Source: Gammaproteobacteria bacterium | Lineage (GTDB): Bacteria; Pseudomonadota; Gammaproteobacteria; JBCCGL01 | Length of the DNA: 64,000 nt | Assembly: GCA_965277715.1 (NCBI GenBank) | Contig: OZ255836.1 | Span: 224,001-288,000, forward strand | Direction of reading: 5' to 3' | Part shown: positions 13,385 to 64,000 of the stretch, one piece after another | How positions within the stretch are numbered: position 1 is the stretch's first letter | Layout: every line of letters starts with the position of its first letter | Translations under genes and position numbers: made by a program | The notes under the pieces: model-generated | What the model saw: the letters and a program-made list of their open reading frames with translations, nothing else | Told to the model about the DNA's origin: nothing | Databases searched by the model: none

Positions 13385-15435
13385 TGACGGCGCATAAAGC
13401 TATCCCCTCAGTTTCCGTTAAATACGCCTGCAACGGCAGCTCAAAAAAATCTAATGAGCTGGGTATGCGCGTTATGCAGGAGCGCGCCTTTGAAAAGCGC
13501 GGCGAACAATACTTACTGATTAAATCGCCGCCTGCATCGGGTAAAAGTCGCGCTTTAATGTTTATCGCGCTGGATAAACTGCACCATCAAAATTTAACAA
13601 AAGCCATTATCGTAGTACCTGAAAAATCCATTGGCTCCAGTTTTAATAATGAGCCATTAACTGAAAACGGATTCTATTGGGATTGGGCGGTTGTACCAAA
13701 ATGGAACTTATGCAACGCCCCCGGCGAAGAGGGTGGCAAGGTTAATACTGTAAAAAACTTTCTTGATAGTGATGACCGCATTCTGGTTTGCACCCATGCT
13801 ACCTTTCGCTTTGCCGTAGATCGCTATGGTGTCGGTGTATTTGATAATTGCCTGGTTGCTATTGATGAATTTCACCACGTTAGCGCTAACCCCGATAACA
13901 AACTGGGTGCCCAACTCGGTCAGTTTTTGGTGCGCGATAAAGCGCATATTGTGGCAATGACGGGTTCTTATTTTAGAGGGGACGCCGAGGCCGTCCTTGC
14001 CCCGCACGATGAGGCGAGTTTTGATACCGTCACTTATACCTACTATGAGCAATTAAATGGCTACGAGTACCTTAAAACGCTGGATATCGGTTATTACTTT
14101 TATTCCGGCAACTATACAGATGAAATTCTGAGTGTTCTTAACCCCCATGAAAAAACGATTATTCATATTCCCAATGTAAACTCACGGGAAAGTAGTAAAG
14201 ACAAGATTAAAGAAGTCGAACATATTATCGAAGAACTAGGTAGCTGGAATGGCATCGATGCCGATACGGGGTTTCACTTGGTCAAAACCAGTGCAGGCAA
14301 ATTAATCAAAATAGCGGATTTAGTGGATGACGACCCCGCTAAACGCGATAAGGTTTCGGCGGCTTTAAAACGCCCCGAGGCAAAAAATGATCGCGGCCAT
14401 GTCGATATTATTATCGCCCTTGGCATGGCCAAAGAAGGCTTTGACTGGATTTGGTGTGAGCACGCCTTGACGATTGGCTATCGTTCCAGTCTCACCGAGA
14501 TCATTCAGATTATTGGCCGTGCCACCCGCGACGCCGAGGGAAAGACACACGCACGCTTTACCAATCTTATAGCAGAACCGGACGCCGCAGAAGAAGCGGT
14601 GACCGATGCCGTGAATGACACATTAAAGGCGATAGCAGCCAGCTTATTGATGGAGCAGGTGCTGGCACCCAAATTCAACTTTACACCCAAGGATAACCAG
14701 AACGGCCCTATGGCGGGTTATGGCTACGGTGATAATGGTTATAACCCTGATGGCAGCAATGTTGGCTTTAATGAGCCAACTGGTCAGCTCCAGATGGAAA
14801 TAAAAGGCCTCGCTGAGCCAAAGAGCGAAGATGCGCGGCGCATCTGTCAGGAAGACTTAAATGAAGTGATTACCGCCTTTGTTCAGGATAAGACTTCGCT
14901 TGAACGCGGCCTGTTCGATGAGGAAATGATTCCTGAAGAATTAACGCAGGTTCGGATGGGTAAAATTGTAAAAGATAAATACCCGGAACTGGACGAGGAA
15001 GATTGTGAAGCGGTCAGACAGCACGCTATTGCCGCACTTAACCTGACTCAGAAAGCGAAAGAAATGGTTAACCAAAGCGATCAGACAGAGCAAGGAAGCA
15101 GTACCGCTTTTATCGATGGTGTCAGAAAGTTTGCGATGAATGTACGCGACCTTGATATTGACCTGATTGATCGTATTAATCCATTTAAACAGGCATACGC
15201 GATTCTCGCCAAATCCATGAGTGAAGAAAGCCTCAAACAAGTGGCTATGGTCATCAACGCGAAAAAGCTATCACTCACTGAGGATGAGGCCAGAGAGCTA
15301 ACTTCGCGTGCGATCAAATTTAAGAAAGAGTGCGGACGCCTGCCCGAATTGACCTCTCCTGATCCTTGGGAGAAACGCATGGCTGAAGGTATCGCTTTCC
15401 TTCAGCGTAAAGTCGCGGAGGAAAGCAATGACTGA
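13384..15435 (+). CDS. SF2 DEAD/DEAH helicase, YeeB-like
   Basis: Walker A SPPASGKS, DEFHH, MTGS, EGFD, QIIGRATR; start overlaps the upstream stop. Confidence 0.9.
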   Translation: MTAHKAIPSVSVKYACNGSSKKSNELGMRVMQERAFEKRGEQYLLIKSPPASGKSRALMFIALDKLHHQNLTKAIIVVPEKSIGSSFNNEPLTENGFYWDWAVVPKWNLCNAPGEEGGKVNTVKNFLDSDDRILVCTHATFRFAVDRYGVGVFDNCLVAIDEFHHVSANPDNKLGAQLGQFLVRDKAHIVAMTGSYFRGDAEAVLAPHDEASFDTVTYTYYEQLNGYEYLKTLDIGYYFYSGNYTDEILSVLNPHEKTIIHIPNVNSRESSKDKIKEVEHIIEELGSWNGIDADTGFHLVKTSAGKLIKIADLVDDDPAKRDKVSAALKRPEAKNDRGHVDIIIALGMAKEGFDWIWCEHALTIGYRSSLTEIIQIIGRATRDAEGKTHARFTNLIAEPDAAEEAVTDAVNDTLKAIAASLLMEQVLAPKFNFTPKDNQNGPMAGYGYGDNGYNPDGSNVGFNEPTGQLQMEIKGLAEPKSEDARRICQEDLNEVITAFVQDKTSLERGLFDEEMIPEELTQVRMGKIVKDKYPELDEEDCEAVRQHAIAALNLTQKAKEMVNQSDQTEQGSSTAFIDGVRKFAMNVRDLDIDLIDRINPFKQAYAILAKSMSEESLKQVAMVINAKKLSLTEDEARELTSRAIKFKKECGRLPELTSPDPWEKRMAEGIAFLQRKVAEESND

Positions 15436-16615
15436 GAAGTCAAACAAAGCATTGCTTGAGGAATTGGGCGTTGGTTCAGTTCCTACCAAAAAGAAGACCC
15501 GTTCACCACGCGAAGAACGCGTTATAGCAGGGTTTGAGGAAATCCAACGTTTTATCGAAGAGCACGGCCGTCTCCCGATGCACGGTGAAGATAAGGATAT
15601 ATTTGAACGGTTGTATGCCATGCGTCTGGATAAAATCCTTTCGCAAGAAGAGTATAGAAGCCTTGTTGCGGATATTGATAAGCAAGGGCTACTGAAAGAT
15701 TGGTCACGCATAGCAGAGCCGCAAGCAGAATATCGTAGTGACAAAGAGCTACTTACCGAGCTTGGTATTAATGCGCCAAAAGAAGGTGAAATTACGTTTT
15801 TAAAACATGTTAAACCGCGTGTGGAAGTAAGAGCAGCGGAGGAAATAGGCAGTAGAATACCGTGCGAGAATTTTGACGGTTTTAAACCCATTTTTGATGC
15901 TGTTCAAGAAGAGTTGAAAAGTGGTGTACGCATAACACGCCCCTTTAGAGATAATGCCGAAATCCGACAGGGAGATCTTTTTATATTATCCGGGCAGAAG
16001 GCCTATGTGGCTGAGGTAGGTGAAGAATTTGTTACCGAGTACGACCGCAAAGACAGCCGCCTGCGCGTTATTTACGACAATGGAACCGAAAGCGATATTT
16101 TATTACGCTCTTTGCAAAGAGCACTTAATAAGGACAAAGCGGGACGAAGAATAACCGATAAATCACTTGGCCCACTATTCTCAGGTGACGCTGCTAATGA
16201 AGATTTGGCGAGTGGTACAGTCTATGTTTTACGAAGTAAATCGGAACACCCAACAATACGGGAAAACAGAGCGATTATTCATAAACTGGGGGTTACGGGT
16301 GGAAGCGTGGAAAAGCGCATTGCCAATGCAAAACTGGATCCAACGTATTTAATGGCTGAGGTCGAAGTCGTGGCAACTTACGAACTTTACAATATCAATC
16401 GAACTAAGCTTGAGCATATCTTTCACCGATTCTTTGAACAGGCCAAACTTGATATAAAAATCCATGACCGTTTTGGCACCCTGGTAACACCAAGAGAGTG
16501 GTTTTTGGTTCCTTTGTTTGTTGTCGATGAAGTCGTTGAAAAGATTAAGGACGGCACTATCGGTCAATACTCTTATGCCATGGAGTCAGCCAAGCTGATT
16601 TTGAATCAACACTAA
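15428..16615 (+). CDS. GIY-YIG/T5orf172 nuclease, YeeC-like
   Basis: GTVYVLRS..HKLGVT..VEKRI..LEHIFHRFF..PREWF. Confidence 0.88.
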   Translation: MTEKSNKALLEELGVGSVPTKKKTRSPREERVIAGFEEIQRFIEEHGRLPMHGEDKDIFERLYAMRLDKILSQEEYRSLVADIDKQGLLKDWSRIAEPQAEYRSDKELLTELGINAPKEGEITFLKHVKPRVEVRAAEEIGSRIPCENFDGFKPIFDAVQEELKSGVRITRPFRDNAEIRQGDLFILSGQKAYVAEVGEEFVTEYDRKDSRLRVIYDNGTESDILLRSLQRALNKDKAGRRITDKSLGPLFSGDAANEDLASGTVYVLRSKSEHPTIRENRAIIHKLGVTGGSVEKRIANAKLDPTYLMAEVEVVATYELYNINRTKLEHIFHRFFEQAKLDIKIHDRFGTLVTPREWFLVPLFVVDEVVEKIKDGTIGQYSYAMESAKLILNQH

Positions 16616-32481: not shown

Positions 32482-33456
32482 TATATGGACCCGCAGTTAA
32501 ATTCAACAATTTTTTAATCGTTCATTCATTTTTTAGCGTTCAGAGCAGACATAGTAAATAAGGTTAGCAGTCATATATCCGGCTTCTCGATAGAACGGAT
32601 TGTATTTGTTTATCCGTCCAGAACCATAATGGGAACCGCGCTCAGACACCTCATCAAGCAATCGGTCTGTGAAGACCATGACCCCTCCAGGTTCTGTCTT
32701 AGCCGGTTTAACCTGTTATACCCTTTACTGCTCTTTCGCTACCTCGTGGTAAGAAATCTTCAACGATGTTATTAAACTGTTTTATGCACGTAAGTTGTAT
32801 TATTAGCCGCCACCGCCCAGCTAATTCTGGCGAGCTTATTGGCCAATGCCACCGCCGCCACACAATGGCCCCGACGTGCTTTGACACGACAGGCCCAACG
32901 ACTTAGCCCATCATCGTGTTTAGGCATTCGACTTAATGCCGCTTGCGCCCCCTGTATCAACAAAGTGCGCACGTGTTCGTCCCCGCGTTTACTGATACCT
33001 TTTAGTTGCGTTTTGCCCCCCGAACTATATTGACGAGGAACGAGACCCAAAAAGGCGGAAAACTCACACCCATTTTTATAAAAACCCGGATCGCCCATTG
33101 CTGTAAACAAGGCAGTGGCGACCAGAGGCCCTACACCCGGCAGTGTTTTTAATTGCTGACAGCGCTCATGCTGGTTGCTCAACTGGGTTAACCGTTTTGT
33201 GTAGTGTGTTACGCGTTTATCAATCGCCACTAGTTCATCATACAAAGAACTGAACACTTCACGTGCTGTGGCTGAACCGTGTTTATTAGCACCACACACT
33301 TGAAAAATAGTTTTGGCTAGATCAATACCCAATCGGGTGATATTCTCGTTCATGGACTCGCTCCTACCTTTATTAGGTGATAATAGATTGGTTGTGTTAC
33401 CGCTCAATCTTGGCACATTGTGATGCCGGTTCAAAGGGAGCGGGTCCATCCCATCA
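32482..33456 (-). mobile_element. IS110 family, IS1111 group, copy 1 (444-bp in-frame deletion in transposase)
   Basis: Near-identical to 59874-61293 but lacking 60055-60498; sub-terminal IRs ATGGACCCGC; GIDLAK, GLVPRQYSSGGK. Confidence 0.92.
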
Positions 33457-35556: not shown

Positions 35557-37240
35557 AGCAAAAGGGGTCAAGGCAGAATGGCACTTCCTTAAGCTGTAAG
35601 TATTTGAAGTAATTACAAAAAAAGCTGGTTCTATGGTAGGTTATTTGTTGCCAACACAAATACCCTTTATCCCACAGGAACCAGCTATCATGCAGAGTAA
35701 TGTAAAAGTCAACATTCTTCAACGTCGCATCAAAAGCCGAGCTCAATCCTCGGATGCATTGAGTTTTTATCACTTGCTGACATCCTCTCAGTTACTTACG
35801 AAACTGGAAGAATTACAACCGGATTTTCGAGCGCGTCGCTATCCTCCTCTAGACACCTTATCGCTGTTTTTATACCAAACAATGAGTGCAGATCAGTCCT
35901 GCCAACAAGCTGTCAACACACTCGCTGTACAGCGATTAAGTGAAGGTTTATCAGTGAGTAATACGTATACAGGGAGTTAGTGTAAAGCGCGACAAAGGCT
36001 GCCAACCCCCCTCGTCTCAGGGCTTGCCCGTTGTACAGGCGAGTGTGTGGCGAATGAAGCGGCCAGTCACTGGCACTGGCAAGGGCGTTCAGTTAAATTG
36101 GTTGACGGCACTACTGTGACGATGCCCGATACGCCTGAAAATCAGGTAGTTTATCCACAACAGTCAGGCCAGCAAGTGGGGATCGGTTTTCCTCTTTGTC
36201 GCTGGGTAGGAATTATTTGTTTAGCCAGTGGTGGTGTTCTCGATGCGGCAATGGGTCCTTTTAAAGGTAAGGGAGCGGATGAGCAAACGTTATTGAGAAA
36301 AATACAAAATGCGCTTAAACCGGGTGATATTGTGGTGGGTGATGCCTATTTTGCGGGTTATTTTTTTCTAGCAAACCTTATAGAGCAAGGAGTAGACGGT
36401 GTATTTGAGCAGCATGGTGCGCGGCGTAAATCCACAGATTTTCGAAAAGGCAAAAAGCTTGGATCGAAGGATCATCTGATTTGTTATACAAAGCCCAAGA
36501 AAAGACCAGAGTGGATGAGCGAAGAAGCCTATGAAGCGGCGGCTGATGAAGTGGTTATACGTGAACTGAAAGTGGGTAAAAAACTGTTGGTGACAACGTT
36601 GTTATCAGTTAAATCGGCGTCTAAAGAGGCTCTTAAACAGCTCTACAAAGAACGCTGGCATGTCGAACTTGATTTACGCCATATAAAAACGACAATGAAG
36701 ATGCACACTTTCCGTTGTAAGACGCCAGAAATGGTTGAGAAGGAAATGTGGGTACACATATTAGCTTACAACCTTATTCGCTTATTAATGGCGCAATCTG
36801 CCTTACTAGTGGACATACTGCCTCGACAGATAAGTTTTAAGCATACGTTACAAATTTGGGTAGCGTATCGTTATCAGAAAGGCGGTAGCCCTCTGGGTAG
36901 TGATAAGGTGTTGGCGCTATGTGCGTTGATTGCAGAAAACTGTGTGGGTAATCGACCGGGGCGTATTGAACCAAGAGTGGTTAAACGAAGACCCAAACCA
37001 TATCCTTTATTGATGCAGCCAAGGGACGTGGCCAGAAGTGTTGTTAAAAAATATGGCCATCCCAAAAAACAGAAATAGGTCATTTACAATGAAAGTACTT
37101 CCATATTTTTCATGTACTTAGAGCTTAAGGAAGTGCCATTCGGGTCAAGGCAGTTATTTCCTATATTTCTTGCTGGAAACCACTGTTTTTATCCGTATTA
37201 GTCGTTGTATGGTGAATAATAAGCCTGACCCCCTTGCTTT
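35557..37240. repeat. ~105 bp GGGGTCA palindromic element, copy 1 (split by IS4-A)
   Basis: AGCAAAAGGGGTCAAGGCAGTTATTTCC...AATAATAAGCCTGACCCCCTTGCTT once the IS is removed; same body at 59781-59876. Confidence 0.85.
35576..37141 (+). mobile_element. IS4-family element A (transposase broken by TAG at 35978)
   Basis: IR GAATGGCACTTCCTTAAGCT; 11-bp target duplication GGGTCAAGGCA (35565-35575 / 37142-37152); LVDGTTVTMPDT, YKERWHVELDLR. Confidence 0.93.
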
Positions 37241-37327: not shown

Positions 37328-38887
37328 CAATGGCACTAAGTTAAGCCGCTTTAGCTTGCCAATATTCAGTTTTTAAAACGTTCCTTGGTCGAGTCATTAA
37401 TGCCCGTGGTTTAGGTCGCCTTTTTACCACTCTTGGTTCAAATCTAAAAGGTCGATGAAGCACACGATCATCCGCAATCGCTGCATATAAATAATCAAGA
37501 TATTGCCGTCTTTTTTGTGCTGGACTCTGCCCACTACCAAGTGATGAAGTGCTTTGTCGGAGTGTTTGCAAAACACCTTTAAGACTTAGCCGATCAACCG
37601 GTGTGTCATGTCGGTATGAAGCGACACACATGATGTGCCTGATCGTGTTGTAAACAATCATGTGCATGATGATTTCCTTACGAACCATATCAGGTGTTTT
37701 ACAGCGTAATATATCCATACCCATGGTGGTTTTAATATTGCGAAAATACAGTTCCACATTCCAGCGCTGTGCATAGAGGTCGATAATTTCTATAGCGGGA
37801 TATTGCTGAGCATCAAGTAGTGTCGTGATGATATAAAAATGGTTCGTCCTAAATCCTTTTCGTACAATACTGACGTGTATTTGTCGTAAAGTTAAGGTCT
37901 TTGGAAGGTCGCTATGCTGCTCTTTTGTGTAACGGGTCGCTTTTGTGTGTTTAGGTTTTTGCCATTCAATATGAAGGTCATTATCGGCTATCTTCTTTTT
38001 GGCCTGGGAGGCAGTGCTGGGCGTTCTCCGCGCCAATGTAACGACACTGTCAACCGTTCGTCGAGAGAGGCAGTCAATATCGTAGAAGCTGCAAAAACCT
38101 TTATCACCTAAGAAAATGTCACCTTCATTGAAGGTATCCCATTGTTCTTCTAAAAGTCTTAGCTCATGACTTTTTTTATTTCCTAGTGCATAGCTCAGAA
38201 TTAAACCGCTATAAAGATTAAAACAAGCTAAAAGCCGTGCTTGAGGAAATCCGCATCCCTGTTTTTGTGATTTCGGTTGTGGGTAAGTTTGTTGATTCGC
38301 GGGCGTATCGGGCATGGATAGGCCTGTCCCATCGGCAACGATAACCGGTCGACCTTGGAGCGCTTTGGGTTGAGGTGGCGATAATCGACACGTCCCTGAA
38401 AATACGTTTTTAAGATCGTCCATGGGTAGTTTTTTACGTGCTTGGCAATAGGCGGAGGTGGATGATGAAGGTATGGGAATGCCTTGGTTGTGGGCGACAT
38501 TTTGCAGTTGTCTAACGACTTCTTTACAGCCACCATCGGCGTTCATTATTTGTGAAAAAAACAACCAGAAAGTATTTTCTTTACTGAAAATACGTCGACG
38601 ACTATTCACACCAAAATCATTCGGTTTAAGAATATTCGTGGGTATAATATCGCCAAGAAAAACAGGTAGTTCACTCAGTGATTTGTGACGTATTTTTGCT
38701 ATCTTATCGTGCAAGATTTGAATGGCTGAACGGGGTGTTTTGCGGAGTGTTTGGATGTTGAATCCGGGTAGAAATAAGGTTGTATTTTTCATACAAAATT
38801 ATAACATTTCAGCCTTTTTTATTGGGTTTATTACAGTTATTTTTTCGTTTATTTTACCCGCTAAAACCGCTTAACTTAGTGCCATTG
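37328..38887 (-). mobile_element. IS4-family element B (intact transposase 37341..38792)
   Basis: IR CAATGGCACTAAGTTAAGC; 11-bp duplication CCCTCTGACCC (37317-37327 / 38888-38898); VADGTGLSMPDT, YAQRWNVELYFR. Confidence 0.93.
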
Positions 38888-38912
38888 CCCTCTGACCCCC
38901 TTGCTTTCTTGC

Positions 38913-40514: not shown

Positions 40515-40824
40515 AAAAGAGAAACTAATTAGGAAAACTAATTAGGACAGGCATTGAGAGCAGGCATCGGCAGGCATCAGGACAGGCAGAGTAAAGACAT
40601 CGACTAGTTTTAGTGCCTGTTCGGAGGTTTTTTTGTTGGTTTGATGAGAGTGAATTCATCGAGCGTGCATCCATCGTTTAGCGTCATGCTTCAATAGCAT
40701 GCCGTCGATTAACGCCATAATGCCTGTCCTGTCCATTTCGGCGTCCATTGGCTCAGCGTTTAAAACCTTTCTTTTAGCGGCGGTTACTGGCGGATGTATT
40801 GAGAGAAGGGAAGGGGTCATATAT

Positions 40825-42353
40825 CAATACCGCTACCTCAGTCTGGTGAAGAACTAAAATAACGTTAAAAGTCATATAGATGGGTAACGTTAGGTTTCCT
40901 TTTGAAGTATCCTTGTAAGCGACAAAACACACAAGTACTTCGCCAAAAAACCTAACGCTGACCTATTCTATGAAATTCGCTATCCGACAGCAAATTAAAA
41001 CGATCAAATGTGTTTTTTTTCAGTTAAACACAGGAGACTTTAATAATTTACTCTGTTCCAAGCGTCTAAACGACCTAAGCGAACTATCGGGCAGCTATCG
41101 AGACCGGGTATTCACCCCACTTGTTACACTGCGTTTATTTCTCTGGCAGGTGTTAAGTGATAATGGCAGTTGTAAAGAAACAGTCGCCCGTCTGCTAGTT
41201 GATCGTTTACAGGAAAACCTGCTTCCAAGTTCTTTTAATAGCGGTCCTTACTGTAAAGCCCGTCAACGTTTATCTCTGTCGTGGGTACTTCAGGAGGTAC
41301 GTTCAATCGGTTCAACGTTACATGCCAGAGCAGGTAAAATTTGGACATGGAAAGGGTATAATGTGGTGCTTGTGGATGGAACCACTGTTCTCATGCCTGA
41401 TACCCAGAAAAATCAACATAAATACCCCCAGCAACAGACTCAAAAACCGGGTTTAGGTTTTCCTATTGCTCGAATAGTCGGACTCATTTCTTTAAGTTCT
41501 GGCGCTATTATTGATTATGCAATGGGAGAGTATCAAGGAAAGGGAACAGGGGAAATGTCATTATTCAGTACCCTGATGACGTCATTAACCGCCAATGATC
41601 TGTTACTGGCAGACCGCTATTACTGTACTTATGCTGTCTTAGCGGCTCTACAATCGAAAGGGGTTGCATTCGTCTCAATGAATCACGCACAAAAGAAAGC
41701 GGATTACAAAACAGGGTTAACGCTTGGTGCAAAAGATCATCTTATCGAGTGGGAAAAACCTAAAAGAAAACCGGTTTGGATGTCGCAATCAGACTTTGAT
41801 CTATTGCCGAAAACCCTGACAGTTCGAGAATTTTCAGTGGATGGGACAGTCTATGTTAGCACTTTGTTGGAGGTTGATACTTACCCTAAGAAAGAGCTTT
41901 CAACACTGTATAAGGAACGTTGGAAAGTTGAATTGGATTTTCGTACAATTAAAACAGATTTGAAAATGGATATGTTGCGATGCCATTCACCCGAGATGGT
42001 TGAAAAAGAAATAGCAACAACCTTTATGGCTTATAACCTGATTCGGGGTAGCATGGCAGAGTCAGCAAAAACAGAGGGTGAAATAGCACGTCAAATAAGT
42101 TTTAAGGCAACGGTACAGCTACTGGGTATTGCTCATATTAAATTCATCCATTCAACATCCAGTATGATACAAAAAGCGTACACTTCCTTATTAAGGATAA
42201 TCGCTTCAACGTTAATTGGCAGGAGAAAACGATCACCCCAACCAAGGGCAATTAAACGACGACCAAAAGCCTACCCACTGTTAACTGAACCTCGTATCAA
42301 GGCCTCTCAGAGACTAAAAGATTCATTGGGTTAAACCTGAGGTAGCGGTATTG
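40825..42353 (+). mobile_element. IS4-family element C (intact transposase 40970..42334)
   Basis: IR CAATACCGCTACCTCAG; LVDGTTVLMPDT, LADRYY, YKERWKVELDFR; flanks differ (no duplication). Confidence 0.93.
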
Positions 42354-55344: not shown

Positions 55345-55492
55345 TTACTCTTCGCTAGTCAACACCAAACACCCGTCCATCACTCTGACCTTCACTGGCG
55401 AATCAATCTCAAATCCCGCTTTGATTAACCAATGGCCTTTGAGGTGAATCTCGCCAATGGGTGTGCGCTGTCGGCAGTTCTGGCTGAAATAA
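55345..55492 (-). pseudogene. symE: SymE-family toxin, N-terminus removed by repeat + ISL3
   Basis: Minus strand reads IHLKGHWLIKAGFEIDSPVKVRVMDGCLVLTSEE*; a candidate start GAGGA..ATGAAAGAG lies just beyond the ISL3. Confidence 0.75.
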
Positions 55493-55521
55493 AAGGAAAA
55501 GGGGTCAGGCTAGTTATTTAC

Positions 55522-56839
55522 GGTTCTTCCCCGGTTTGTGTGAGGTTATAGTATTTCATCCTCCTTTGCTATTGAGAGACTCCGGTGCTATCGAGCCTTG
55601 AAGAACACTACAGCCAGCTCCTATGCCTGACAGATGACTGGTCAGTGACATCAGTTGATTTAGACCCTTCAGGGTTAAAAGTATCCATTTCGTTGGCGTT
55701 TAGCGGCAACCACGGCCCTTGCTCGCACTGTGGCGAAGTGAGTCCGTTCTATGATCACCGTTCACAAGAGCGATCCTGGAGACACCTGGATATTATGCAG
55801 TTTGAAACGCGCCTACACAGTCGCATTCCCCGAGTAAATTGTCTGGAGCATGGTGTTAAAAGTATGATGTTACCCTGGGCAAGCAAGCGCAGTCGTTTTA
55901 CGTTGTTGTTTGAATTATTTTCCATCAGGGTGTTGCAAGCCTCACGTAGCGTCGAAGAGGCGCGTAAGTTACTGGGACTTAGCTGGAACGCAGTGGAAGC
56001 CATCAAAGCCCGCGCTGTCGAACGGGGACTTTCGCGTCGGGAATTGGTGACAATTGAGTACCTGGGTATTGATGAGAAGTCCCACCGTAAAGGGCATGAC
56101 TATGTGACGCTCATCAATGATATCGATGGAGGGCGAGTATTGGATGGAGTGAAAGATCGCACCCAGGCAGCTTGTGAGGAGGCGTTGGAGGTTGCGCTGA
56201 CGGATAACCAGCGAGAACAGGTGAAAGCTGTCGCTATTGATAGGTGGCCTGCGTTCATTAATGCCGTTGAGGTAAAACTGTCAGACAGTGCGATTGTTCA
56301 CGACCGTTTTCCTATTAGCCAACACCTGAATAAGGCGGTGGATCAGGTCCGTCGTGACGAACATAGAGACCTTTTGTCACAGGGTGATACTCGATTGAAA
56401 AAGAGTCGTTATCACTGGTTAAAAAATGAAGAAAATTTGTCTAACAAAGCAGCCGAGCACTTTGAGTCACTCAAGCATGATCAGTTATTGACAGCCCGAG
56501 CCTGGGCGATAAAAGAACTGTTTCGTGATTTTTGGACGTATAAGACAGCGGGTTGGGCAAAGCGTTTCTTTAGCGCATGGTATGCGTGGGCAATTCGGTG
56601 CCGATTGGACAGCATAAAGAAAGTGGCCAAGATGATAAAAACGCACATGCCGAACATATTGACATGGTTTAAGCACACAATAAGTAATGCCGTATCAGAG
56701 GGTTTGAATTCAAAAATTCAGACAGTCAAATCGAATGCAAGAGGGTTTCGTTCGTTTGAAAGTTACCGGCGGAGTATTTTGTTTTACTGCGGAAAGCTGG
56801 ATAGGGAACCAGTGGCTTCACAATAATCGGGGAAGAACC
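55522..56839 (+). mobile_element. ISL3-family element (transposase 55585..56826)
   Basis: IR GGTTCTTCCCCG; CSHC..C..HG zinc finger, GIDEKS, HDRF, SNAVSEGLNSKIQ..RGFR. Confidence 0.93.
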
Positions 56840-57182: not shown

Positions 57183-58319
57183 TTATGCTTTAGAATGCTT
57201 GTAGGCCGAAATACTAGTTATATTTTCTGGCAAATCTAACTCGGATAAGAGTGGAAGCAATAAGCTTTCTGTTTGTGTGAGGCTAGTTAAGAATTCGGCC
57301 TTCATTCCTAGTTCGTTTAATAGTCCACCAAAATTTCTCCCATAGCTCTTAAGCAGAAGGGCTAAACTCGATGGTAATAATTCGGGAAAATCTAAGGATA
57401 CTCTGTCGTCATAATATTCTTCTTTTGTTTGCCCTGTTTTGCTGAAATGAATGTTTGCTGTTCTGTATTGTGATGGCGTGATCATTCCATACTGGTTTAG
57501 CCTGTAAATAATAGCTCTAGCGCTTATCCCCCACTTAATCTTTATTGAGTATATGCTGTTCCAGTCAATTCGAGTTTTACTCTTGCTTGTGTATTCTCTA
57601 ATCAGTGCTGCGCGGGGCAGAAGAAAGTGGCTGGCGAAGTGGTCTGCCTGCGACTCGGTATCTCTATCTCCGGTTTCGATACCATTGTGGCCAATGATAT
57701 GTAGCATCTCGTGACCTATATCCATTCTTATACGAGGAGCGTTTTTTGTTGTATTAAGAATAATTATTGGACGCCCTCTGTTTAAAGACAGAGCGTCAAT
57801 TTTTTCAGATATTTCACCGAATGTTGAAACAATCACGCCTGCATTTTCTGCAACACGAATCATATTTTTAATTGGCCCGTCACCAAGCTTCCAATACTTC
57901 CTGCATTCGATACTGGCATTTTCTGCATCGGCTATGGAGGTTATCTCTAACTGCGGAAAGTTTACTGCTGGAAGATCAAGGTATTCCTCTAGAGTGGCAA
58001 CAAGCTTGTTGAGAAGTGTTGCACGAGCAGCACTCTCTCTTCGTGATGAAACCAAGGTTGTCTTTAATTTCCTGAAATGGCACTCCTCTTCTTTAACCTG
58101 ATTACCTAGTTGGTAGCCAAAAAAACTTGGTTCAACTTTTAGTTCGTAAGCCAGTGCATCCACCAACTCTTTGGTTGGTGTTTTCTTATCGGTGGTTTCA
58201 AGCTGATGAATGTATTGACGAGTGTTGCCAACTCGTTGTCCCAACTCATTTAAAGAAATGCCCGACATAAGCCGGGCAATCCTCAGGTTGTCTCCATTAA
58301 ATGCGATTTTGTCACTCAT
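57183..58319 (-). CDS. XRE-HTH + ImmA/IrrE (M78) metallopeptidase fusion, RmrA-like antitoxin
   Basis: N-terminal HTH (LRIARL..LNELG..YIHQLE), HFRK linker, RIRMDIGHEMLH (HExxH), ESQADHFASHFLLP. Confidence 0.9.
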   Translation of the reverse strand: MSDKIAFNGDNLRIARLMSGISLNELGQRVGNTRQYIHQLETTDKKTPTKELVDALAYELKVEPSFFGYQLGNQVKEEECHFRKLKTTLVSSRRESAARATLLNKLVATLEEYLDLPAVNFPQLEITSIADAENASIECRKYWKLGDGPIKNMIRVAENAGVIVSTFGEISEKIDALSLNRGRPIIILNTTKNAPRIRMDIGHEMLHIIGHNGIETGDRDTESQADHFASHFLLPRAALIREYTSKSKTRIDWNSIYSIKIKWGISARAIIYRLNQYGMITPSQYRTANIHFSKTGQTKEEYYDDRVSLDFPELLPSSLALLLKSYGRNFGGLLNELGMKAEFLTSLTQTESLLLPLLSELDLPENITSISAYKHSKA

Positions 58320-58963
58320 TCGTCGTGCTCTTTGGAATTAGAAACTTTGTCTGTTGCAGCTTTTGGCAAAGATGCTGACGCAGCAGGAAGATCTACTGGC
58401 TCGCTTTCCACACTGTTGATTGCAACTATATTAGATGCAATATCGAAGATTGGCACTGTGCGAGAAGCTATAACTTCACCAGACTCTGTCATGCCGAAAA
58501 ATTCTATATTGGTTGTTGTGCCTTCTAGGTCGGTCTCTACTGCGTACACCCAAACAAGCTTTTCTGGGATCGGTGAATCAAATAGTAAGCTGTTTTGTCG
58601 CAGTTCTGGGTGGGACTGCGCACGATTATGAATATTTGCCTTCGGTTTGTTTGCCATGCCTTTATAAAAACTAAACTCTACGCTGCCAATTTTGGCAATA
58701 AAGCGTAGTGAGGGGTCAACAATATTTAACCAAGGAAAACTTTTAGATTGAAACACTATTTCATTGCTCACCCATGCATGTGCTCGACAGCCTATACTCC
58801 AGCCATTGTCCCGATCTTCTACGGCATCAAGGTTTTCAGCTCTGACTCTGGCAATTAGTTGGCCGATATAATCGATGCGCTCATCGGTTAGGCAGGAATG
58901 TATTTCAGAAGGCTGTTTGATCATGTGGCAGTACCCATTTATGAGTGTAGAAGACAATGCCAT
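58316..58963 (-). CDS. hypothetical protein coupled to the XRE-peptidase (candidate toxin)
   Basis: 4-bp stop/start overlap with the peptidase gene; no motif recognised. Confidence 0.75.
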   Translation of the reverse strand: MALSSTLINGYCHMIKQPSEIHSCLTDERIDYIGQLIARVRAENLDAVEDRDNGWSIGCRAHAWVSNEIVFQSKSFPWLNIVDPSLRFIAKIGSVEFSFYKGMANKPKANIHNRAQSHPELRQNSLLFDSPIPEKLVWVYAVETDLEGTTTNIEFFGMTESGEVIASRTVPIFDIASNIVAINSVESEPVDLPAASASLPKAATDKVSNSKEHDE

Positions 58964-59113
58964 GATATGGGTAAAAACGGGTTTTTGTCAACCGCGATAT
59001 GGTTTGTAAATCAACTTTGCTATTGTCAACTTGAAGTGAGGTTACTTTCGCTGATGTTTATTAATAAGTAATCACATGTAAGCAGTTTCTGACGCTCCTT
59101 GATTCAAAATAAA

Positions 59114-59145
59114 AAAGCCCCGAAAACCTTACGGCTCGGGGCTTT
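59114..59145 (-). terminator. terminator downstream of tRNA
   Basis: AAAAAGCCCCGA..TCGGGGCTTT. Confidence 0.7.
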
Positions 59146-59152
59146 GATATGC

Positions 59153-59226
59153 TGGGCCTTCGCAGACTTGAACTGCGGACCTGCCGATTATGAGTCGGAT
59201 GCTCTAACCAACTGAGCTAAAGGCCC
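59153..59226 (-). tRNA. tRNA with CAT anticodon, Ile2 type; CCA not encoded (GCA follows)
   Basis: GGGCCTTTAGCTCAGTTGGTTAGAGCATCCGACTCATAATCGGCAGGTCCGCAGTTCAAGTCTGCGAAGGCCCA folds as a cloverleaf; position downstream of rpoD matches ileX. Confidence 0.9.
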
Positions 59227-59344
59227 TAAACTGTTTTTGCCGCTTACTAACTGCTTACTTTCACTTTTTGCTTTAGTTGTTTACTTGGCGTAAGCGGCTG
59301 TAACTAAAGCCTTTTTTGTTCTTTCTCTCCATCTAGCCCGCTCT

Positions 59345-59384
59345 ATTATGAGTCCCCTGCTCTAACCAACTGAGCTACAGGCCC
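59345..59384 (-). pseudogene. 5' half of a different tRNA-Ile(CAT), broken just after the anticodon loop
   Basis: GGGCCTGTAGCTCAGTTGGTTAGAGCAGGGGACTCATAAT followed by unrelated sequence. Confidence 0.85.
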
Positions 59385-59429
59385 ACATGTTTAAACAGTG
59401 GGGTAGGGCGATTGCCCTGAGTGGTGATT

Positions 59430-59724
59430 TTAATCGCCGTCGAGGAAGCTGCGCAACTGTTCCGAGCGGGTCGGGTGGCGTAACTTACGTAACGCTTTGG
59501 CTTCTATCTGCCGTATCCGCTCGCGCGTTACGTCAAATTGTTTGCCGACTTCTTCCAGTGTGTGGTCGGTGTTCATGTCGATACCGAAACGCATCCGCAA
59601 TACTTTTGCCTCGCGTGGCGTCAGGCAGGATAACACATCGTGGGTGGTTTCACCCAGCCCTGAATTGGTCGCCGATTCGACTGGGGATACGGCGCCCTGG
59701 TCTTCGATAAAGTCACCGAGGTGA
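59430..59724 (-). pseudogene. rpoD: RNA polymerase sigma70 RpoD, C-terminal fragment (region 3.2-4)
   Basis: [59 protein letters not shown]; upstream replaced by repeat. Confidence 0.92.
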
Positions 59725-59876
59725 AGCAAAAGGGGTCATGAAGCAAAAGGGGTCAAGACAGTTATTTCCTATATTTCTTGAAGCAAAAGGGGTCAAGACA
59801 GTTATTTCCTATATTTCTTGCTGGAAACCACTGTTTTTATCCGTATTAGTCGTTGTATGGTGAATAATAAGCCTGA
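59722..59876. repeat. GGGGTCA element copy 2 with triple 5' stutter; right arm completed at 61294-61307
   Basis: TGAAGCAAAAGGGGTCA starts at 59722, 59739 and 59779, the units being 17 bp, 40 bp and full length. Confidence 0.88.
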
Positions 59877-61293
59877 TGGGATGGACCCGCTCCCTTTGAA
59901 TCGGCATCACAATGTGCCAAGATTGAGCGGTAACACAACCAATCTATTATCACCTAATAAAGGTAGGAGCGAGTCCATGAACGAGAATATCACCCGATTG
60001 GGTATTGATCTAGCCAAAACTATTTTTCAAGTGTGTGGTGCTAATAAACACGGTAAAGTGGTGTTTAATAAAAAACTTAAACGCGATCAGCTACCGTCTT
60101 ATATCGCCACTATACCGGCCTGTGAGGTGGTGATGGAAGCGTGTGCGACGTCCAGTTATTGGTCGCAGGTTTTCACACGCTACGGCCATACCGTCAAACT
60201 CATTAACCCAGCCTATGTACGCCCTTACGTTAAAACAAACAAGAACGATGCAGCGGATGCAGAGGCGCTGTGTGAAGCAGCCTCACGTCCGAATATGCGA
60301 TTTGTTTAGCCCAAAACACCCGACCAACAAGACAGCCAATTACTCCACCGGGTGCGCAGTCGGCTAGTGTCAAAACGGACGAGTTTAAGTAATCAGATAA
60401 GAGGGTTACTGGGTGAGTATGGGCTGATTATTCCGGTAGGTATTCGCCACGTCCGCCAGCACTTGCCTGCGCTTTTAGAGGATGCTGAAAATGCCTTGTC
60501 AGCCACAGCACGTGAAGTGTTCAGTGCTTTGTATGATGAACGAGTGGAGATTGATAAACGCGTAACACACTACACAAAACGGTTAACCCAGTTGAGTAAC
60601 CAGCATGAGCGCTGTCAGCAATTAAAAACACTGCCGGGTGTAGGGCCTCTGGTCGCCACTGCCTTGTTTACAGCAATGGGCGATCCGGGTTTTTATAAAA
60701 ACGGGCGTGAGTTTTCCGCCTTTTTGGGTCTCGTTCCTCGTCAATATAGTTCGGGGGGCAAAACACAACTCAAAGGTATCAGTAAACGCGGGGACGAACA
60801 CGTGCGCACTTTGTTGATACAGGGGGCGCAAGCGGCATTAAGTCGAATGCCTAAACACGATGATGGGCTAAGTCGTTGGGCCTGTCGTGTCAAAGCACGT
60901 CGGGGCCATTGTGTGGCGGCGGTGGCATTGGCCAATAAGCTCGCCAGAATTAGCTGGGCGGTAGCGGCTAATAATACAACTTACGTGCATAAAACAGTTT
61001 AATAACATCGTTGAAGATTTCTTACCACGAGGTAGCGAAAGAGCAGTAAAGGGTATAACAGGTTAAACCGGCTCAGACAGAACCTGGAGGGGGTCATGGT
61101 CTTCACAGACCGATTGCTTGATGAGGTGTCTGAGCACGGTTCCCATTATGGCTCTGGACGGATAAACAAATACAATCCGTTCTATTGAGAAGCCGGATAT
61201 ATGACTGCTAACCTTATTTACTGTGGCTGCTCTGAACGCTAAAAAATGAATGAACGATTAAAAAATTGTTGAATTTAACTGCGGGTCCATATA
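59874..61293 (+). mobile_element. IS110 family, IS1111 group, copy 2 (transposase 59977..61002, in-frame TAG at 60307)
   Basis: DEDD motifs GIDLAK, MEAC, KNDAADA; SSGGK serine motif; sub-terminal IR ATGGACCCGC; TGA core at both junctions; ~290 bp 3' non-coding region. Confidence 0.95.
61030..61235 (+). ncRNA. predicted bridge/seek RNA of the IS1111 element (second copy about 32540-32745, minus strand)
   Basis: Two stem-internal-loop modules whose loop strands match the target (AGGGGGTCA, TTGCTTGA) and the donor junction (TCCCATTAT, ATATATGA); boundaries approximate. Confidence 0.75.
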
Positions 61294-61494
61294 TGACCCC
61301 CTTGCTTACCTTGGGTGGCGCACTATAAGCATACGTTACGCCATGCATAGCAAAGCGTTACGCGGTTTTCCCGTTATGGATTATGTTTTCAGGGTGATAA
61401 AAACCGGAGCGGTGAGTAAGCCAGGAAATTTTTATAAAAATGTCTTATATGTTGAACAGTTAAGCTATATATTGCACTCTATATAAGACATTTT

Positions 61495-61830
61495 ATGAAA
61501 ACACAAGCAACCAGTACACTGCCCCGTGCAGCCCGACAGGCCCTTATAGAACTCGGTGGGGACATTGCTGTCGCACGAAAAAAACGACGTATTTCTACTG
61601 TCTCAATGGCTGAACGTGCCTTTATTAGTCGGGGTACACTCTATAAAGTCGAAAAGGGTGACCCAACGGTTGCAATGGGTATCTATGCCACGGTGCTCTC
61701 GATTCTGGGGCTTGTTGAACGTCTTGGGCAGGTGGCTGATCGCAGCAGTGATTCGCTGGGTTTGGATATAGAAGAGGATCGGTTACCCAGGAAAGTACAA
61801 CCGCGTAAGCGTAAAAAGGAATTGTTATGA
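61495..61830 (+). CDS. XRE HTH protein of HipB-like antitoxin type; partner toxin absent
   Basis: LGGDIAVARKKRRIS..MAERAFISRGTLYKVEKGDPTVAMGIYATVL..LP.KV. Confidence 0.8.
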   Translation: MKTQATSTLPRAARQALIELGGDIAVARKKRRISTVSMAERAFISRGTLYKVEKGDPTVAMGIYATVLSILGLVERLGQVADRSSDSLGLDIEEDRLPRKVQPRKRKKELL

Positions 61831-61880
61831 CGGAGACCGGCTTCCTTAGTCGTCGGGCAGTGGTTAGTGAGTGATATTCC

Positions 61881-62064
61881 TTAACCCTAAATTCCGCAGT
61901 TGAATCTACTGCGAGCACCTGATGCACAGAATCTAAAGCGCTTTTACCCGCATTTCAGCTTCACCTGTAGAATGACTACAGGATGGCTAAAATGCGGGTA
62001 AAAACACTTCATCTTCAGCACCTTAGACGCCCTCGCTACGATTCAACTGCGGAATTTAGGTTAA
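61881..62064. mobile_element. ~180 bp fold-back MITE flanked by TTAA
   Basis: Perfect 21-bp terminal IR CCTAAATTCCGCAGTTGAATC, inner IR TTTTACCCGCATTT, central CCTGTAG/CTACAGG. Confidence 0.8.
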
Positions 62065-62184
62065 CTGACCTGGCTGTATTGCTGATAGTGATACGCAGGA
62101 AGAGGCTTTAGTAGAAGCGAGGGTGCGTTTGAGGCGTGGAAAATGGCCCGAAGGGCAGGGCACAGAGCGTAGAGCCCCCCTACT

Positions 62185-62198
62185 GTCATAACATTGAC
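62185..62198. promoter_or_regulatory. putative FleQ/FlrA binding site
   Basis: GTCATAACATTGAC fits the GTCA-N6-TGAC FleQ box, just upstream of a sigma54 promoter. Confidence 0.55.
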
Positions 62199-62251
62199 GT
62201 TTTTTCCATGATTTTATAGTAAATCACTGAATCTTATCATTTAACTCAGCG

Positions 62252-62267
62252 TGGCATAGTTTCTGCA
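62252..62267 (+). promoter_or_regulatory. sigma54 -24/-12 promoter of fleSR
   Basis: TGGCATAGTTTCTGCA, GG-N10-GC. Confidence 0.75.
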
Positions 62268-62304
62268 CTCGTCCCGACTACTGTAAATACTGGTCGGAGC
62301 CATA

Positions 62305-63453
62305 ATGCCACAAGCCTGCGCAATTGCGCCCTGTACGCCCCTGGAGTACTGCAAACAACCCCGTATAGCGCCTGGCACGGCAAGTGCGTCAACTGTCTGT
62401 AAATCACTGATCGATGCCGTACCCGGTGCGCTGTTACTGCTGGATGCCAGTGGCAATATTGCCAGTGCCAACGATACCGCCTGTAACTGGTTGAATGGCC
62501 CATTACTCGGTCAGTGTTGGCGCGATGTTTACCAGCGTGAATTTCAATCAGGTCTCAATCGGGGGGATTTGTCGACCCGCGATAACCGTTTGTTAAATAT
62601 CTCAACCCGGCCACTCGGTGACAAGCCTGGGCAGGTTGTCCTGCTCAGTGATGTCACCGAAAGCCGCATGTTACAACAACTAATGGAACGCAATACGCGG
62701 CTGGTATCGATGGGGGAGATGGTCGCCCGTCTTTCCCACCAGATCCGCACACCTATCGCCACTGTCGTGTTGTACCTGACGCAGATGCAGGCGACTTCAC
62801 TGAATTTGAGCACTCAGCAGGCATTTATCGAAAAATCGCTGGCACGGTTACGCCATGTCGAAAAAATGATTCGCGATATGTTGATGTTTGCCCACGGAGC
62901 GCGCACCGATGTGGAAACCATGTCGATATCGGTGGTGCTCAATGAGCTGGATCAACAATTGGCACCGCTGATGGAATTGGCCGGTGCACAGTATCAGATT
63001 AATTGCGACACCACGGCATTGCTGCGCGCCAATTGCACCGGCATGGTGACGGCTTTATTGAATATTTGTAGCAATGCCATCGAGAACGTCGGCCCGAGCC
63101 TCCGCTTGACCATTAATGCCGATCAGGACGAGGCAGAAAATACGGTGATTAAAATAGCCGATAACGGCAAAGGCGTTGCACCGGCACTGCGTCAGCGCGT
63201 ATTTCAACCTTTTTTTACCACGCGCAACGACGGCACCGGGCTGGGTTTATCCGTGGTTAAGTCGATTGTCGAGGCGCACAACGGGACGATTGAAATAAAG
63301 CGTGCAGCAATGGGCGGGGCGCTGTTTGTGATAACAATCCCCGCACTTAACACCAGTCGGCGCGGAGCAACTCAACAGCCTGCCAAGGGCGGTAACAAGC
63401 GTGTGCCTATGCCCTCTGTTGCCAGCCGTTTCGCAATGCGCACCGCTACCTGA
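62305..63453 (+). CDS. fleS: flagellar PAS sensor histidine kinase FleS/FlrB
   Basis: PAS, GEMVARLSHQIRTP H-box, FQPFFTT..GTGLGL. Confidence 0.85.
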   Translation: MPQACAIAPCTPLEYCKQPRIAPGTASASTVCKSLIDAVPGALLLLDASGNIASANDTACNWLNGPLLGQCWRDVYQREFQSGLNRGDLSTRDNRLLNISTRPLGDKPGQVVLLSDVTESRMLQQLMERNTRLVSMGEMVARLSHQIRTPIATVVLYLTQMQATSLNLSTQQAFIEKSLARLRHVEKMIRDMLMFAHGARTDVETMSISVVLNELDQQLAPLMELAGAQYQINCDTTALLRANCTGMVTALLNICSNAIENVGPSLRLTINADQDEAENTVIKIADNGKGVAPALRQRVFQPFFTTRNDGTGLGLSVVKSIVEAHNGTIEIKRAAMGGALFVITIPALNTSRRGATQQPAKGGNKRVPMPSVASRFAMRTAT

Positions 63454-63565
63454 TCGTTGCTATGACAATTCCTCGTTATAGTGGGAACAGTGTAGGGGCG
63501 TTCCCCTATTTGCCAAACAGATAGAACTGTTAACAAAAAAGATCGATTCGAGAGAGGTAATAAGT

Positions 63566-64000
63566 ATGAGTAAAGCAAAAATCCTGGTGGTTGAAGATGA
63601 CGATGCACTGCGCCAGGCACTGACCGATACGCTGGAACTGGCGGGTTACCCGGTATACGCCTGTGATAATGGCGAATCGGCGCTAACGACGCTGCACCTG
63701 CAAACGGATATTGCGCTGGTTGTCAGCGATGTGCAAATGGCCCCTGTCGACGGTTTAACGCTGCTGAAATCGATTCGCACATCGAATACCGATTTACCGG
63801 TCATTCTAATGACTGCCTACGGCAGCGTGCCTCGTGCGGTCGATGCATTGCAACACGGCGCTAATGATTACCTCGCCAAGCCATTTGAAGTGGGAGCGCT
63901 ACTGGAAAAAATAGACGGTTTATTAGTCTCCCAGCAAACGCGTGAAGACACCTTTATCGCCACTGATCCGGTAATGCAGAAACTGATTGGTATCGCACAG
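63566..64000 (+). CDS. fleR: sigma54-dependent response regulator FleR/FlrC, partial
   Basis: MSKAKILVVEDDDALRQALTDTLELAGY..SDVQM..MTAYG..YLAKPF; runs off the window. Confidence 0.85.
   Translation, partial: MSKAKILVVEDDDALRQALTDTLELAGYPVYACDNGESALTTLHLQTDIALVVSDVQMAPVDGLTLLKSIRTSNTDLPVILMTAYGSVPRAVDALQHGANDYLAKPFEVGALLEKIDGLLVSQQTREDTFIATDPVMQKLIGIAQ

Follow-up and report, generated by a model that had tools for sequence, protein, structure and literature searches.

The stretch of DNA analysed here, 64,000 nt of the gammaproteobacterial contig OZ255836.1 and hereafter called the window, carries at 59874-61293 an insertion sequence (IS) of the IS1111 type, copy 2, and at 32482-33456 a shorter copy, copy 1. 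In our reading, to which we assign a probability of roughly 0.85, copy 2 is an IS1111-type element whose region 3' of the transposase gene encodes a two-module guide RNA, of the kind called seekRNA or bridge RNA, that would read both the target and the donor. Module 1 would form an internal loop around a hairpin, in which the 5' segment GAGGGGGTCA (T) would pair with the top strand of the right half of the target, TGACCCCCTT, and the 3' segment GCTTGA (B) with the bottom strand of GCC/TGA, that is, with the left half and the first bases of the right half (here and below a slash marks an insertion point or an element end). Both segments would position the DEDD transposase, and the circular IS would enter at the GCC/TGA boundary, in a single orientation and duplicating nothing. 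Module 2, predicted to have the same layout, holds one segment (D1, TCCCATTAT) complementary to the left end and another (D2, ATATATGA) in the sense of the right end, and would bind the donor by holding the circle junction CCAT-ATA-TGATGGG-ATGG. We infer that the RNA is made and is bound by the enzyme. With its target in the terminal inverted repeat of a repeat that resembles a miniature inverted-repeat transposable element (MITE), the IS would find many landing sites in the genome. Coordinates are collected in Table 1.

Each hallmark of the IS1111 group that can be looked for in sequence was found in copy 2, which supports its membership; the descriptions of the group are those in the sections of Siddiquee et al. 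2024 (PMC11187229) and Durrant et al. 2024 (PMC11208160) on which we draw throughout. The transposase combines a DEDD (RuvC-like) N-terminal domain with the PF02371 C-terminal domain in a protein of the approximately 330-350 aa usual in the group and, when its internal TAG is read through as X, is otherwise full length and retains every residue that 40 aligned relatives have in common, D11, E54, D91 and D94 among them. The 10-bp subterminal inverted repeats fall within the 7-17 bp given for the group (PMC11208160), and the 7-bp left and 3-bp right extensions agree with the IS1111-type rule of a 7-bp extension outside the left repeat and no target duplication (PMC11187229); a repeat pair of the ATGG[AT]C type was present in 122 of the 160 nearest related loci that we collected. 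The non-coding sequence from the stop codon to the end of the IS (291 nt) is longer than that from its start to the ATG (103 nt), in line with the long non-coding region that IS1111-type elements carry downstream of their transposase gene (PMC11187229). The boundaries of copy 2 are consistent both with an unoccupied paralogous site between 37225 and 37226 and with a contig from another sequencing run (X4) that joins 59876 to 61299, and the circle junction was deduced from these ends.

Siddiquee et al. also describe a junction promoter in IS1111-type elements, with co-transcription from it (PMC11187229). Were copy 2 to circularise, the outward-facing hexamer TTGAAT near its right end would stand 17 bp from TA/TGAT, which we predict to be such a promoter; in most relatives ATA and TAAT come together as TATAAT across the junction. 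The left extension begins with YA in most relatives and the right flank, together with the matching bases of D2, with YG (43 pairs of TA with TG and 20 of CA with CG among 109), and the formation of TATAAT at the junction may be the reason for the A. A scan of the linear element for promoters and terminators returned neither a promoter-like site ahead of the guide RNA nor a terminator; the lone promoter-like site, upstream of the transposase gene, lies below the shuffle count.

The 160 loci, whose transposases share 44-61% protein identity with that of copy 2, comprise 80 taken from species-representative genomes, where 545 of 589 candidate stretches were confirmed, and 80 taken from metagenomes, where 563 of 596 were; the 122 with a repeat pair were reduced, after removal of redundancy, to 108 relatives which, like copy 2, have at least 12 flank bases on each side. 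The metagenome scan yielded relatives of 45-55% identity only, and the relatives of 72-80% identity known as proteins were not among them. The regions 3' of the gene align on a conserved scaffold. RNAalifold, given the window sequence and every second eligible relative (54 sequences), predicted 29 pairs, 24 of them with compensatory changes, in an outer closing stem, a small hairpin, a strongly covarying module-1 stem of 7-8 bp, a CCU-AGG closure of the internal loop, a central hairpin, and a GGCC-GGCC stem with hairpin in module 2; in the outer stem the window has a compensatory A-U where relatives show U-A. We then built a covariance model (R1) from 46 relatives, the window being excluded and 7 of 53 sequences removed beforehand (1 duplicate and 6 with large insertions or deletions). 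At E<=1, R1 matched the 64-kb window exactly twice, at 61031-61213 on the plus strand in copy 2 (101.4 bits, E 6.7e-24, all 29 pairs standard) and at 32562-32743 on the minus strand in copy 1. The non-coding region of copy 2 folds with a z score of -4.19, and 0 of 200 shuffles fold as well. Against Rfam (positions 58000-64000, E<=1) no family was found on the element, the only matches being a tRNA gene at 59153-59226 and three weak ones elsewhere.

It was in this 3' non-coding region, now seen to hold a conserved structure, that the original prediction had proposed a guide RNA. Its hairpin is present as GGTCT-tcac-AGACC at 61098-61111, and its 14-bp stem stands in part: the inner pairs covary, with changes on both sides in 16-31 of 54 sequences at each of seven pairs, but the five outer pairs, AACCG with CGGTT, are neither conserved nor covarying (one of them forms in 1 of 53 sequences) and compete with a small hairpin conserved in the family, GG 61061-62 with CC 61068-69. 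The guide strings of the original prediction were likewise found in their places, including AGGGGGTCA at 61088-61096, which is exactly reverse-complementary to the right flank TGACCCCCT at 61294-61302, as well as TCCCATTAT at 61141-61149 and ATATATGA at 61197-61204 in the second module. T (61087-61096) lies 5' of B (61116-61121), and both cover TGA, overlapping at the insertion point.

That these segments would read the target is supported by their covariation with the flanks. Taking the longest pairing run, with G-U allowed, as our measure, we compared each of 108 unique elements having both flanks with its own flanks and with those of the others (11,526 foreign pairs). The T region (12 nt 5' of the central hairpin) reached a mean run of 8.08 on its own right flank, with at least 7 in 88 of 108, against a mean of 4.27 and at least 7 in 4.9% on the flanks of other elements. 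For the B region (10 nt 3' of the hairpin) and the bottom strand of the left flank the corresponding values were 6.96 and 76 of 108 on own flanks, and 4.08 and 3.3% on foreign ones. Positions -5 to +1 of the B profile, which are the five left-flank bases nearest the insertion point and the two at the start of the right flank, were paired in 82-94% of elements, as compared with 39-85% when shuffled (39-46% at the five left-flank positions). The elements followed in this way include many with unrelated targets, and the covariation supports the pairing scheme of the original prediction; a bias towards wobble pairs in T and B (49 vs 37 and 27 vs 21) is too weak to argue from. In the window the T segment has a run of 10 on its own target and of at most 8 on the targets of 107 other elements, and of the 7 positions typical of the family, 5 are covered by the B segment. 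When the 278-nt non-coding region was shuffled 2000 times with dinucleotides preserved, a 9-mer complementary to the right flank arose in 5 shuffles, a complement of the left end with one G-U in 12, and an 8-mer of the right end in 16, and all four matches, including that to GCCTGA, arose together in none.

The second module follows the ends of the IS in a comparable manner. The trinucleotide after AT in D2 equals the 3-bp right extension of the same element wherever the anchor was found (104 of 104; 5 of 109 lack it), six different trinucleotides being represented, and the next two bases of D2 mostly repeat those with which the right flank begins. In D1 the two variable bases are the complement of positions 6-7 of the left extension, exactly so in 72 of 106 elements, and where D1 departs from Watson-Crick pairing the departures are of the G-U type at 21 positions and of the A-C type at 1. 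This bias fits pairing of RNA with DNA rather than a duplicated DNA site, although the relatedness of the elements means that they are not independent cases. At the level of sequence, therefore, the RNA has a second loop complementary to the donor ends at the circle junction, and such target- and donor-complementary loops are reported by Durrant et al. 2024 in the examples that they inspected (PMC11208160). The comparison of 108 elements supports a donor-binding role for a portion of the long seekRNA that the experimental paper left without a stated function, and this support for a donor-reading module 2 is a useful by-product rather than a discovery.

The MITE-like repeat is about 105 bp long, and its ends are inverted copies of each other (GCAAAAGGGGTCAAGGC and GCCTGACCCCCTTGC). 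At 37142-37225 the window has a further version of the left flank of copy 2 (84 bases, 98.8% identical), which there continues straight into TGACCCCCTTGC; this uninterrupted run gives the empty site as AATAAGCC/TGACCCCCTTGC at 37215-37237 and implies that nothing was duplicated on insertion. The empty target of the original prediction has an unoccupied paralogous counterpart there, and the circle junction follows from the ends of the element. With at most 1 mismatch, GCCTGACCCC occurs 9 times in the window against 2.81 expected, a number reached by 0 of 100 shuffles, and two of these occurrences are exact and unoccupied. Copy 1 also has GCC as its left flank.

Ten public runs from five studies, several of them labelled sponge metagenome and none listed as RNA, contain the stretch, and four were examined as contigs. 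Among the loose ends beyond the right end of the IS in these four runs, 7 of the 7 shown diverge only after TGACCC or later, into at least 6 different flanks, and the loose ends on the left mostly share CC or GCC. One X4 contig contains the copy-2 locus without the IS (59857-59876 joined to 61299-61400), with 12 extra bases and the target TGACCCCCTTGC twice in tandem at the joint. The other insertion sites and this empty allele imply recent movement of the family, in every case to a place next to the motif read by T. The claim that the guide set is aimed at a resident repeat is therefore upheld, the target being the terminal inverted repeat of the MITE-like repeat, and other copies, for which sites at odds with the loops would have counted against that claim, all adjoin TGACCC on the right-side ends shown.

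Both transposase genes had been called damaged, which is correct for the window, copy 2 having the TAG at 60307-60309 and copy 1 a 444-bp deletion, but not for the genome. The transposase cluster has 13 members, all encoded on one contig of 4,294,796 bp (4.29 Mb), and two of them, intact 341-aa paralogues in the same genome, are 98% identical to copy 2, with Q at the position of its stop. Position 60307 is C, not T, in every contig that covers it in the four runs, and the 444-bp deletion form was found in one of them. Because of the intact paralogues, repair of the TAG is unnecessary for obtaining the enzyme, which by the sequence should be available without mending it. Copy 2, stopped at codon 111, cannot make an enzyme of its own, but with both ends and the full set of 29 model pairs preserved, and with intact paralogues present at other places in the genome, it could be mobilised in trans. 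The closest full-length match to the transposase anywhere is 80% identical and the closest in species-representative genomes 61%, and a search of a plasmid collection for distant DNA similarity gave no record covering at least 80% of the element, the best records having 9-21% coverage at 67-75% identity inside IS110-family transposase genes.

Several observations weigh against our reading. The match of TTGCTTGA (61114-61121) to GCCTGA with one G-U, found where the original prediction put it, arose in 628 of the 2000 shuffles and is by itself at chance; the B match is just 6 nt long including one wobble, and runs of at least 6 were obtained on 17 of 107 foreign targets. The T segment is one base off the commonest register of its relatives relative to the hairpin. 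Under the criteria used, 38 of the 160 loci had no repeat pair and were dropped, and because the related elements share ancestry, the counts across them are not independent events. The dinucleotide 3' of CAT in D1 is in most cases CA, regardless of the left end, donor binding by module 2 in IS1111-type elements is a candidate role rather than a proven one, and the 82-nt RNA of ISEc11, judged by its size, would exclude a second module. Finally, both copies in the window are enzyme-dead. That the complementarities are accidental or hitch-hiking, and that the transposase protein alone reads the target, would agree with the chance-level B match and with several nearest relatives lying beside TGACC, from which a shared protein preference is conceivable; we regard this as scarcely credible, given that the T and B regions follow their own flanks across 108 elements with many unrelated targets, that the four matches in the window never arose jointly by shuffling, and that experimental reprogramming has been demonstrated for the family (PMC11187229).

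It is harder to dismiss, though clearly improbable, that only module 1 guides and that 61141-61204 is a processing or structural part of the precursor, or an internal DNA site that binds transposase and copies the ends. The 82-nt RNA suffices for transposition of ISEc11, the role of the long form being stated there as unknown (PMC11187229), and, seen as DNA, the right tip is repeated directly in D2 and the left tip in inverted form in D1, in the manner of subterminal protein-binding sites, with the constant CA of D1 pointing the same way. Nevertheless, D1 and D2 are arranged as T and B are, on either side of a covarying stem and hairpin, D2 follows the 3-bp extension without exception, the departures of D1 show the bias expected of RNA pairing and not of a DNA site, and donor-complementary loops have been reported in the IS1111 elements inspected (PMC11208160). 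A different doubt concerns the present: the two copies could be inert fossils, neither transcribed nor moved now, with the RNA region preserved merely through the recency of the insertions. The stop in copy 2 and the deletion in copy 1 would suit this, as would the broken stem pair of copy 1 and the A-to-G change in its flank. The retention in copy 2 of both ends and every model pair, the two paralogues, and the recent movement of the family seen in the unoccupied locus and the several other insertion sites argue against it, such that we hold it to be doubtful, though a possibility of some weight; it touches present activity only and not what the sequence encodes, which we continue to read as a guide RNA with a target and a donor module.

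We also entertained a joint proposal of three linked parts, namely that the guide slips by one base in its G run in step with C-run variants of the target, that module 2 is a true donor loop, and that enzyme-dead copies with preserved ends and RNA persist as guide carriers moved in trans by the intact paralogues. A G run shorter by one base in the T segment was found in two of the four runs, and in the window the copy with GGGG adjoins CCCC and that with GGGGG adjoins CCCCC. These are no more than two instances, and with wobble pairing the longer guide would tolerate either C run. Linkage of guide and flank variants could not be followed in the run contigs, which break at the ends of the IS, none spanning from 61089 to beyond 61300. 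Taken as a whole the proposal seems to us rather unlikely; if true, a donor-binding module 2 would settle the stated question of what the long seekRNA is for.

Table 1. Features of the two IS copies and their insertion sites, in window coordinates
Feature	Position	Strand	Remarks
IS1111-type IS, copy 2	59874-61293	+	1420 bp; ends are subterminal inverted repeats plus 7-bp and 3-bp extensions; no target-site duplication
Left target flank GCC	59871-59873	+	part that would pair with B
Left extension TGATGGG	59874-59880	+	7 bp; first three bases TGA equal the first three of the right flank; same layout in relatives
Left subterminal inverted repeat ATGGACCCGC	59881-59890	+	10 bp
Promoter-like TTGAGC-16-TATTAT	59923-59950	+	5' of transposase gene; weak, 1 site vs 2.5 expected from shuffles, not above chance
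DEDD transposase gene	59977-61002	+	341 codons, broken by TAG 60307-60309 (codon 111); PF01548 E 5.5e-11, PF02371 E 2e-23
Predicted two-module guide RNA (long seekRNA / bridge RNA)	61031-61213	+	183 nt; closing stem TAGC 61033-36 with GCTA 61207-10; from R1 and RNAalifold
Putative target-binding module (module 1)	61071-61135	+	stem GCTCAGAC 61071-78 with GTCTGAGC 61128-35; inner closure CCT 61083-85 with AGG 61124-26; hairpin 61098-61111
T segment GAGGGGGTCA	61087-61096	+	complementary to top strand of right flank TGACCCCCTT: 9 Watson-Crick and 1 G-T; run of 10
B segment GCTTGA	61116-61121	+	complementary to bottom strand of GCC/TGA with one U-G; run of 6; shorter than family norm
D1 segment TCCCATTAT	61141-61149	+	complementary to left end A/TGATGGG/A with one U-G
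Module-2 stem and hairpin	61150-61194	+	GGCT 61150-53 with AGCC 61191-94; GGACGGAT 61156-63 with ATCCGTTC 61175-82
D2 segment ATATATGA	61197-61204	+	same sense as right end AT-ATA plus TGA; would pair with bottom strand
-35-like hexamer TTGAAT	61269-61274	+	outward-facing; TTGCAA at the same place in relatives
Right subterminal inverted repeat GCGGGTCCAT and right extension ATA	61281-61293	+	repeat 10 bp, 61281-90; extension 3 bp, 61291-93
Right target flank TGACCCCCT	61294-61302	+	part of terminal inverted repeat of MITE-like repeat
Unoccupied target GCC/TGACCCC	37223-37232	+	in other copy of MITE-like repeat (37142-37240)
Second exact unoccupied GCCTGACCCC	55501-55510	-	
IS copy 1	32482-33456	-	975 bp; 444-bp deletion inside transposase gene; 99.4% over 181 and 97.8% over 805 bases vs copy 2; flanks TCTATGCC / TGGCCCCTTTT
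Guide RNA region of copy 1	32562-32743	-	93.8 bits, E 5.2e-22; T segment one G fewer (AGGGGTCA); one stem pair broken

Two copies of the MITE-like repeat are interrupted. One, within 35565-37240, is split by an IS4-family element (35576-37141) with inverted repeats of its own and an 11-bp duplication, GGGTCAAGGCA. The other, at 59738-59873 and 61294-61310, has its first approximately 40 bp tandemly duplicated (59738-59817) and hosts copy 2, such that elements of the IS1111 type and the IS4 family sit inside the same repeat in a form of layered parasitism. The possibility that the repeat motif is the inverted repeat of the IS4-family elements themselves was ruled out, as the element at 35576-37141 possesses separate inverted repeats and shows, within the MITE-like repeat, an 11-bp duplication. 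The motif AAGGGG(G)TCA adjoins the ends of several mobile elements (37329-38906, 40811-40850 and 55490-55530), among its neighbours being a second IS4-family element with the 11-bp duplication CCCTCTGACCC, a further one, the third, near 40811, and the DNA that lies upstream of an ISL3 transposase gene; the motif seems to be either a shared landing site or a shared end. More widely, 26080-56826 is rich in transposases, with IS5, four IS4-type, IS3, IS66 and ISL3 besides the two IS1111-type copies, and an RHS-core fragment is present there too. On the minus strand at 59430-59729 an open reading frame (ORF) of 99 aa resembles, from its translation alone, the C-terminal part of a sigma-70-family factor and is probably a gene fragment, since it ends abruptly at the start of the repeats and the IS; the tRNA gene mentioned above (minus strand, 69.3 bits) lies approximately 650 bp to the left of copy 2. 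Three consecutive large ORFs at 10592-16612 (930, 683 and 395 aa) had no NCBIfam match at E<=1e-10, and none of the 31 larger ORFs of the window that were scanned was seen to be a resistance, toxin or virulence gene.

The system to which copy 2 appears to belong is already known. For IS1111-type elements Siddiquee et al. 2024 describe a transposase-bound seekRNA of 70-100 nt within a longer form of 145-170 nt, in which the match to the top strand lies 5' of that to the bottom strand and the two overlap in the target, as well as natural and experimental re-direction and a requirement for the correct donor flanks (PMC11187229), and bridge RNAs were predicted in the right end of 93.0% of IS1111s by Durrant et al. 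2024 (PMC11208160). A module 1 of about 65-80 nt in a whole RNA of about 183 nt fits the published description of the seekRNA. Copy 2 resembles ISEc11 in its DEDD transposase of about 340 aa, its subterminal repeats, 7-bp left extension and lack of duplication, its predicted downstream RNA with T before B and an overlap between them, the short module of about 80 nt in an RNA of 150-180 nt, and the putative junction promoter (PMC11187229). It differs in its guides and in its target GCC/TGACCCCC in the MITE-like repeat, and its transposase is probably a distant relative. With IS621 it would share a single RNA having two internal loops, one for the target and one for the donor junction, whose segments read opposite strands around a shared core (PMC11208160), whereas the RNA of IS621 lies in the left end upstream of the gene, with the order of the strand matches reversed (PMC11187229). 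Moreover, the subterminal repeats of IS621 are only 2-3 bp long as against 10 bp in copy 2, and the left extension and right flank start with the same 3 bases (TGA) in copy 2 and with the same 1-2 in most relatives.

Landing inside other repeats also has precedents. One IS1111-type element reportedly uses a single position and a single orientation for insertion into the terminal inverted repeat of a Tn21-family transposon, where the host element in our case is a MITE-like repeat of about 105 bp. ISPpu9, an IS110/IS1111 element, resides in repetitive extragenic palindromic (REP) sequences (PMC12288879), as does ISPa11 (PMC11187229); these share with copy 2 a short and abundant genomic repeat as landing site and differ from it in the repeat family and the guide sequences. 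A small RNA gene associated with ISPpu9 also occurs as solo copies (PMC12288879), a pattern not observed for the copy-2 RNA in the window. The guide set, which the original prediction called new, is so, within a system known since 2024 as seekRNA or bridge RNA: the element is a previously uncatalogued but otherwise ordinary member of the IS1111 family, and it is the element, its guide set and its target that are new. It adds one more natural pair of guide and target for the RNA-guided DEDD recombinases, with a guide legible from the DNA, and accounts for the position of the IS inside copies of a short repeat in its host genome, while the known picture of the IS1111 family is unchanged.

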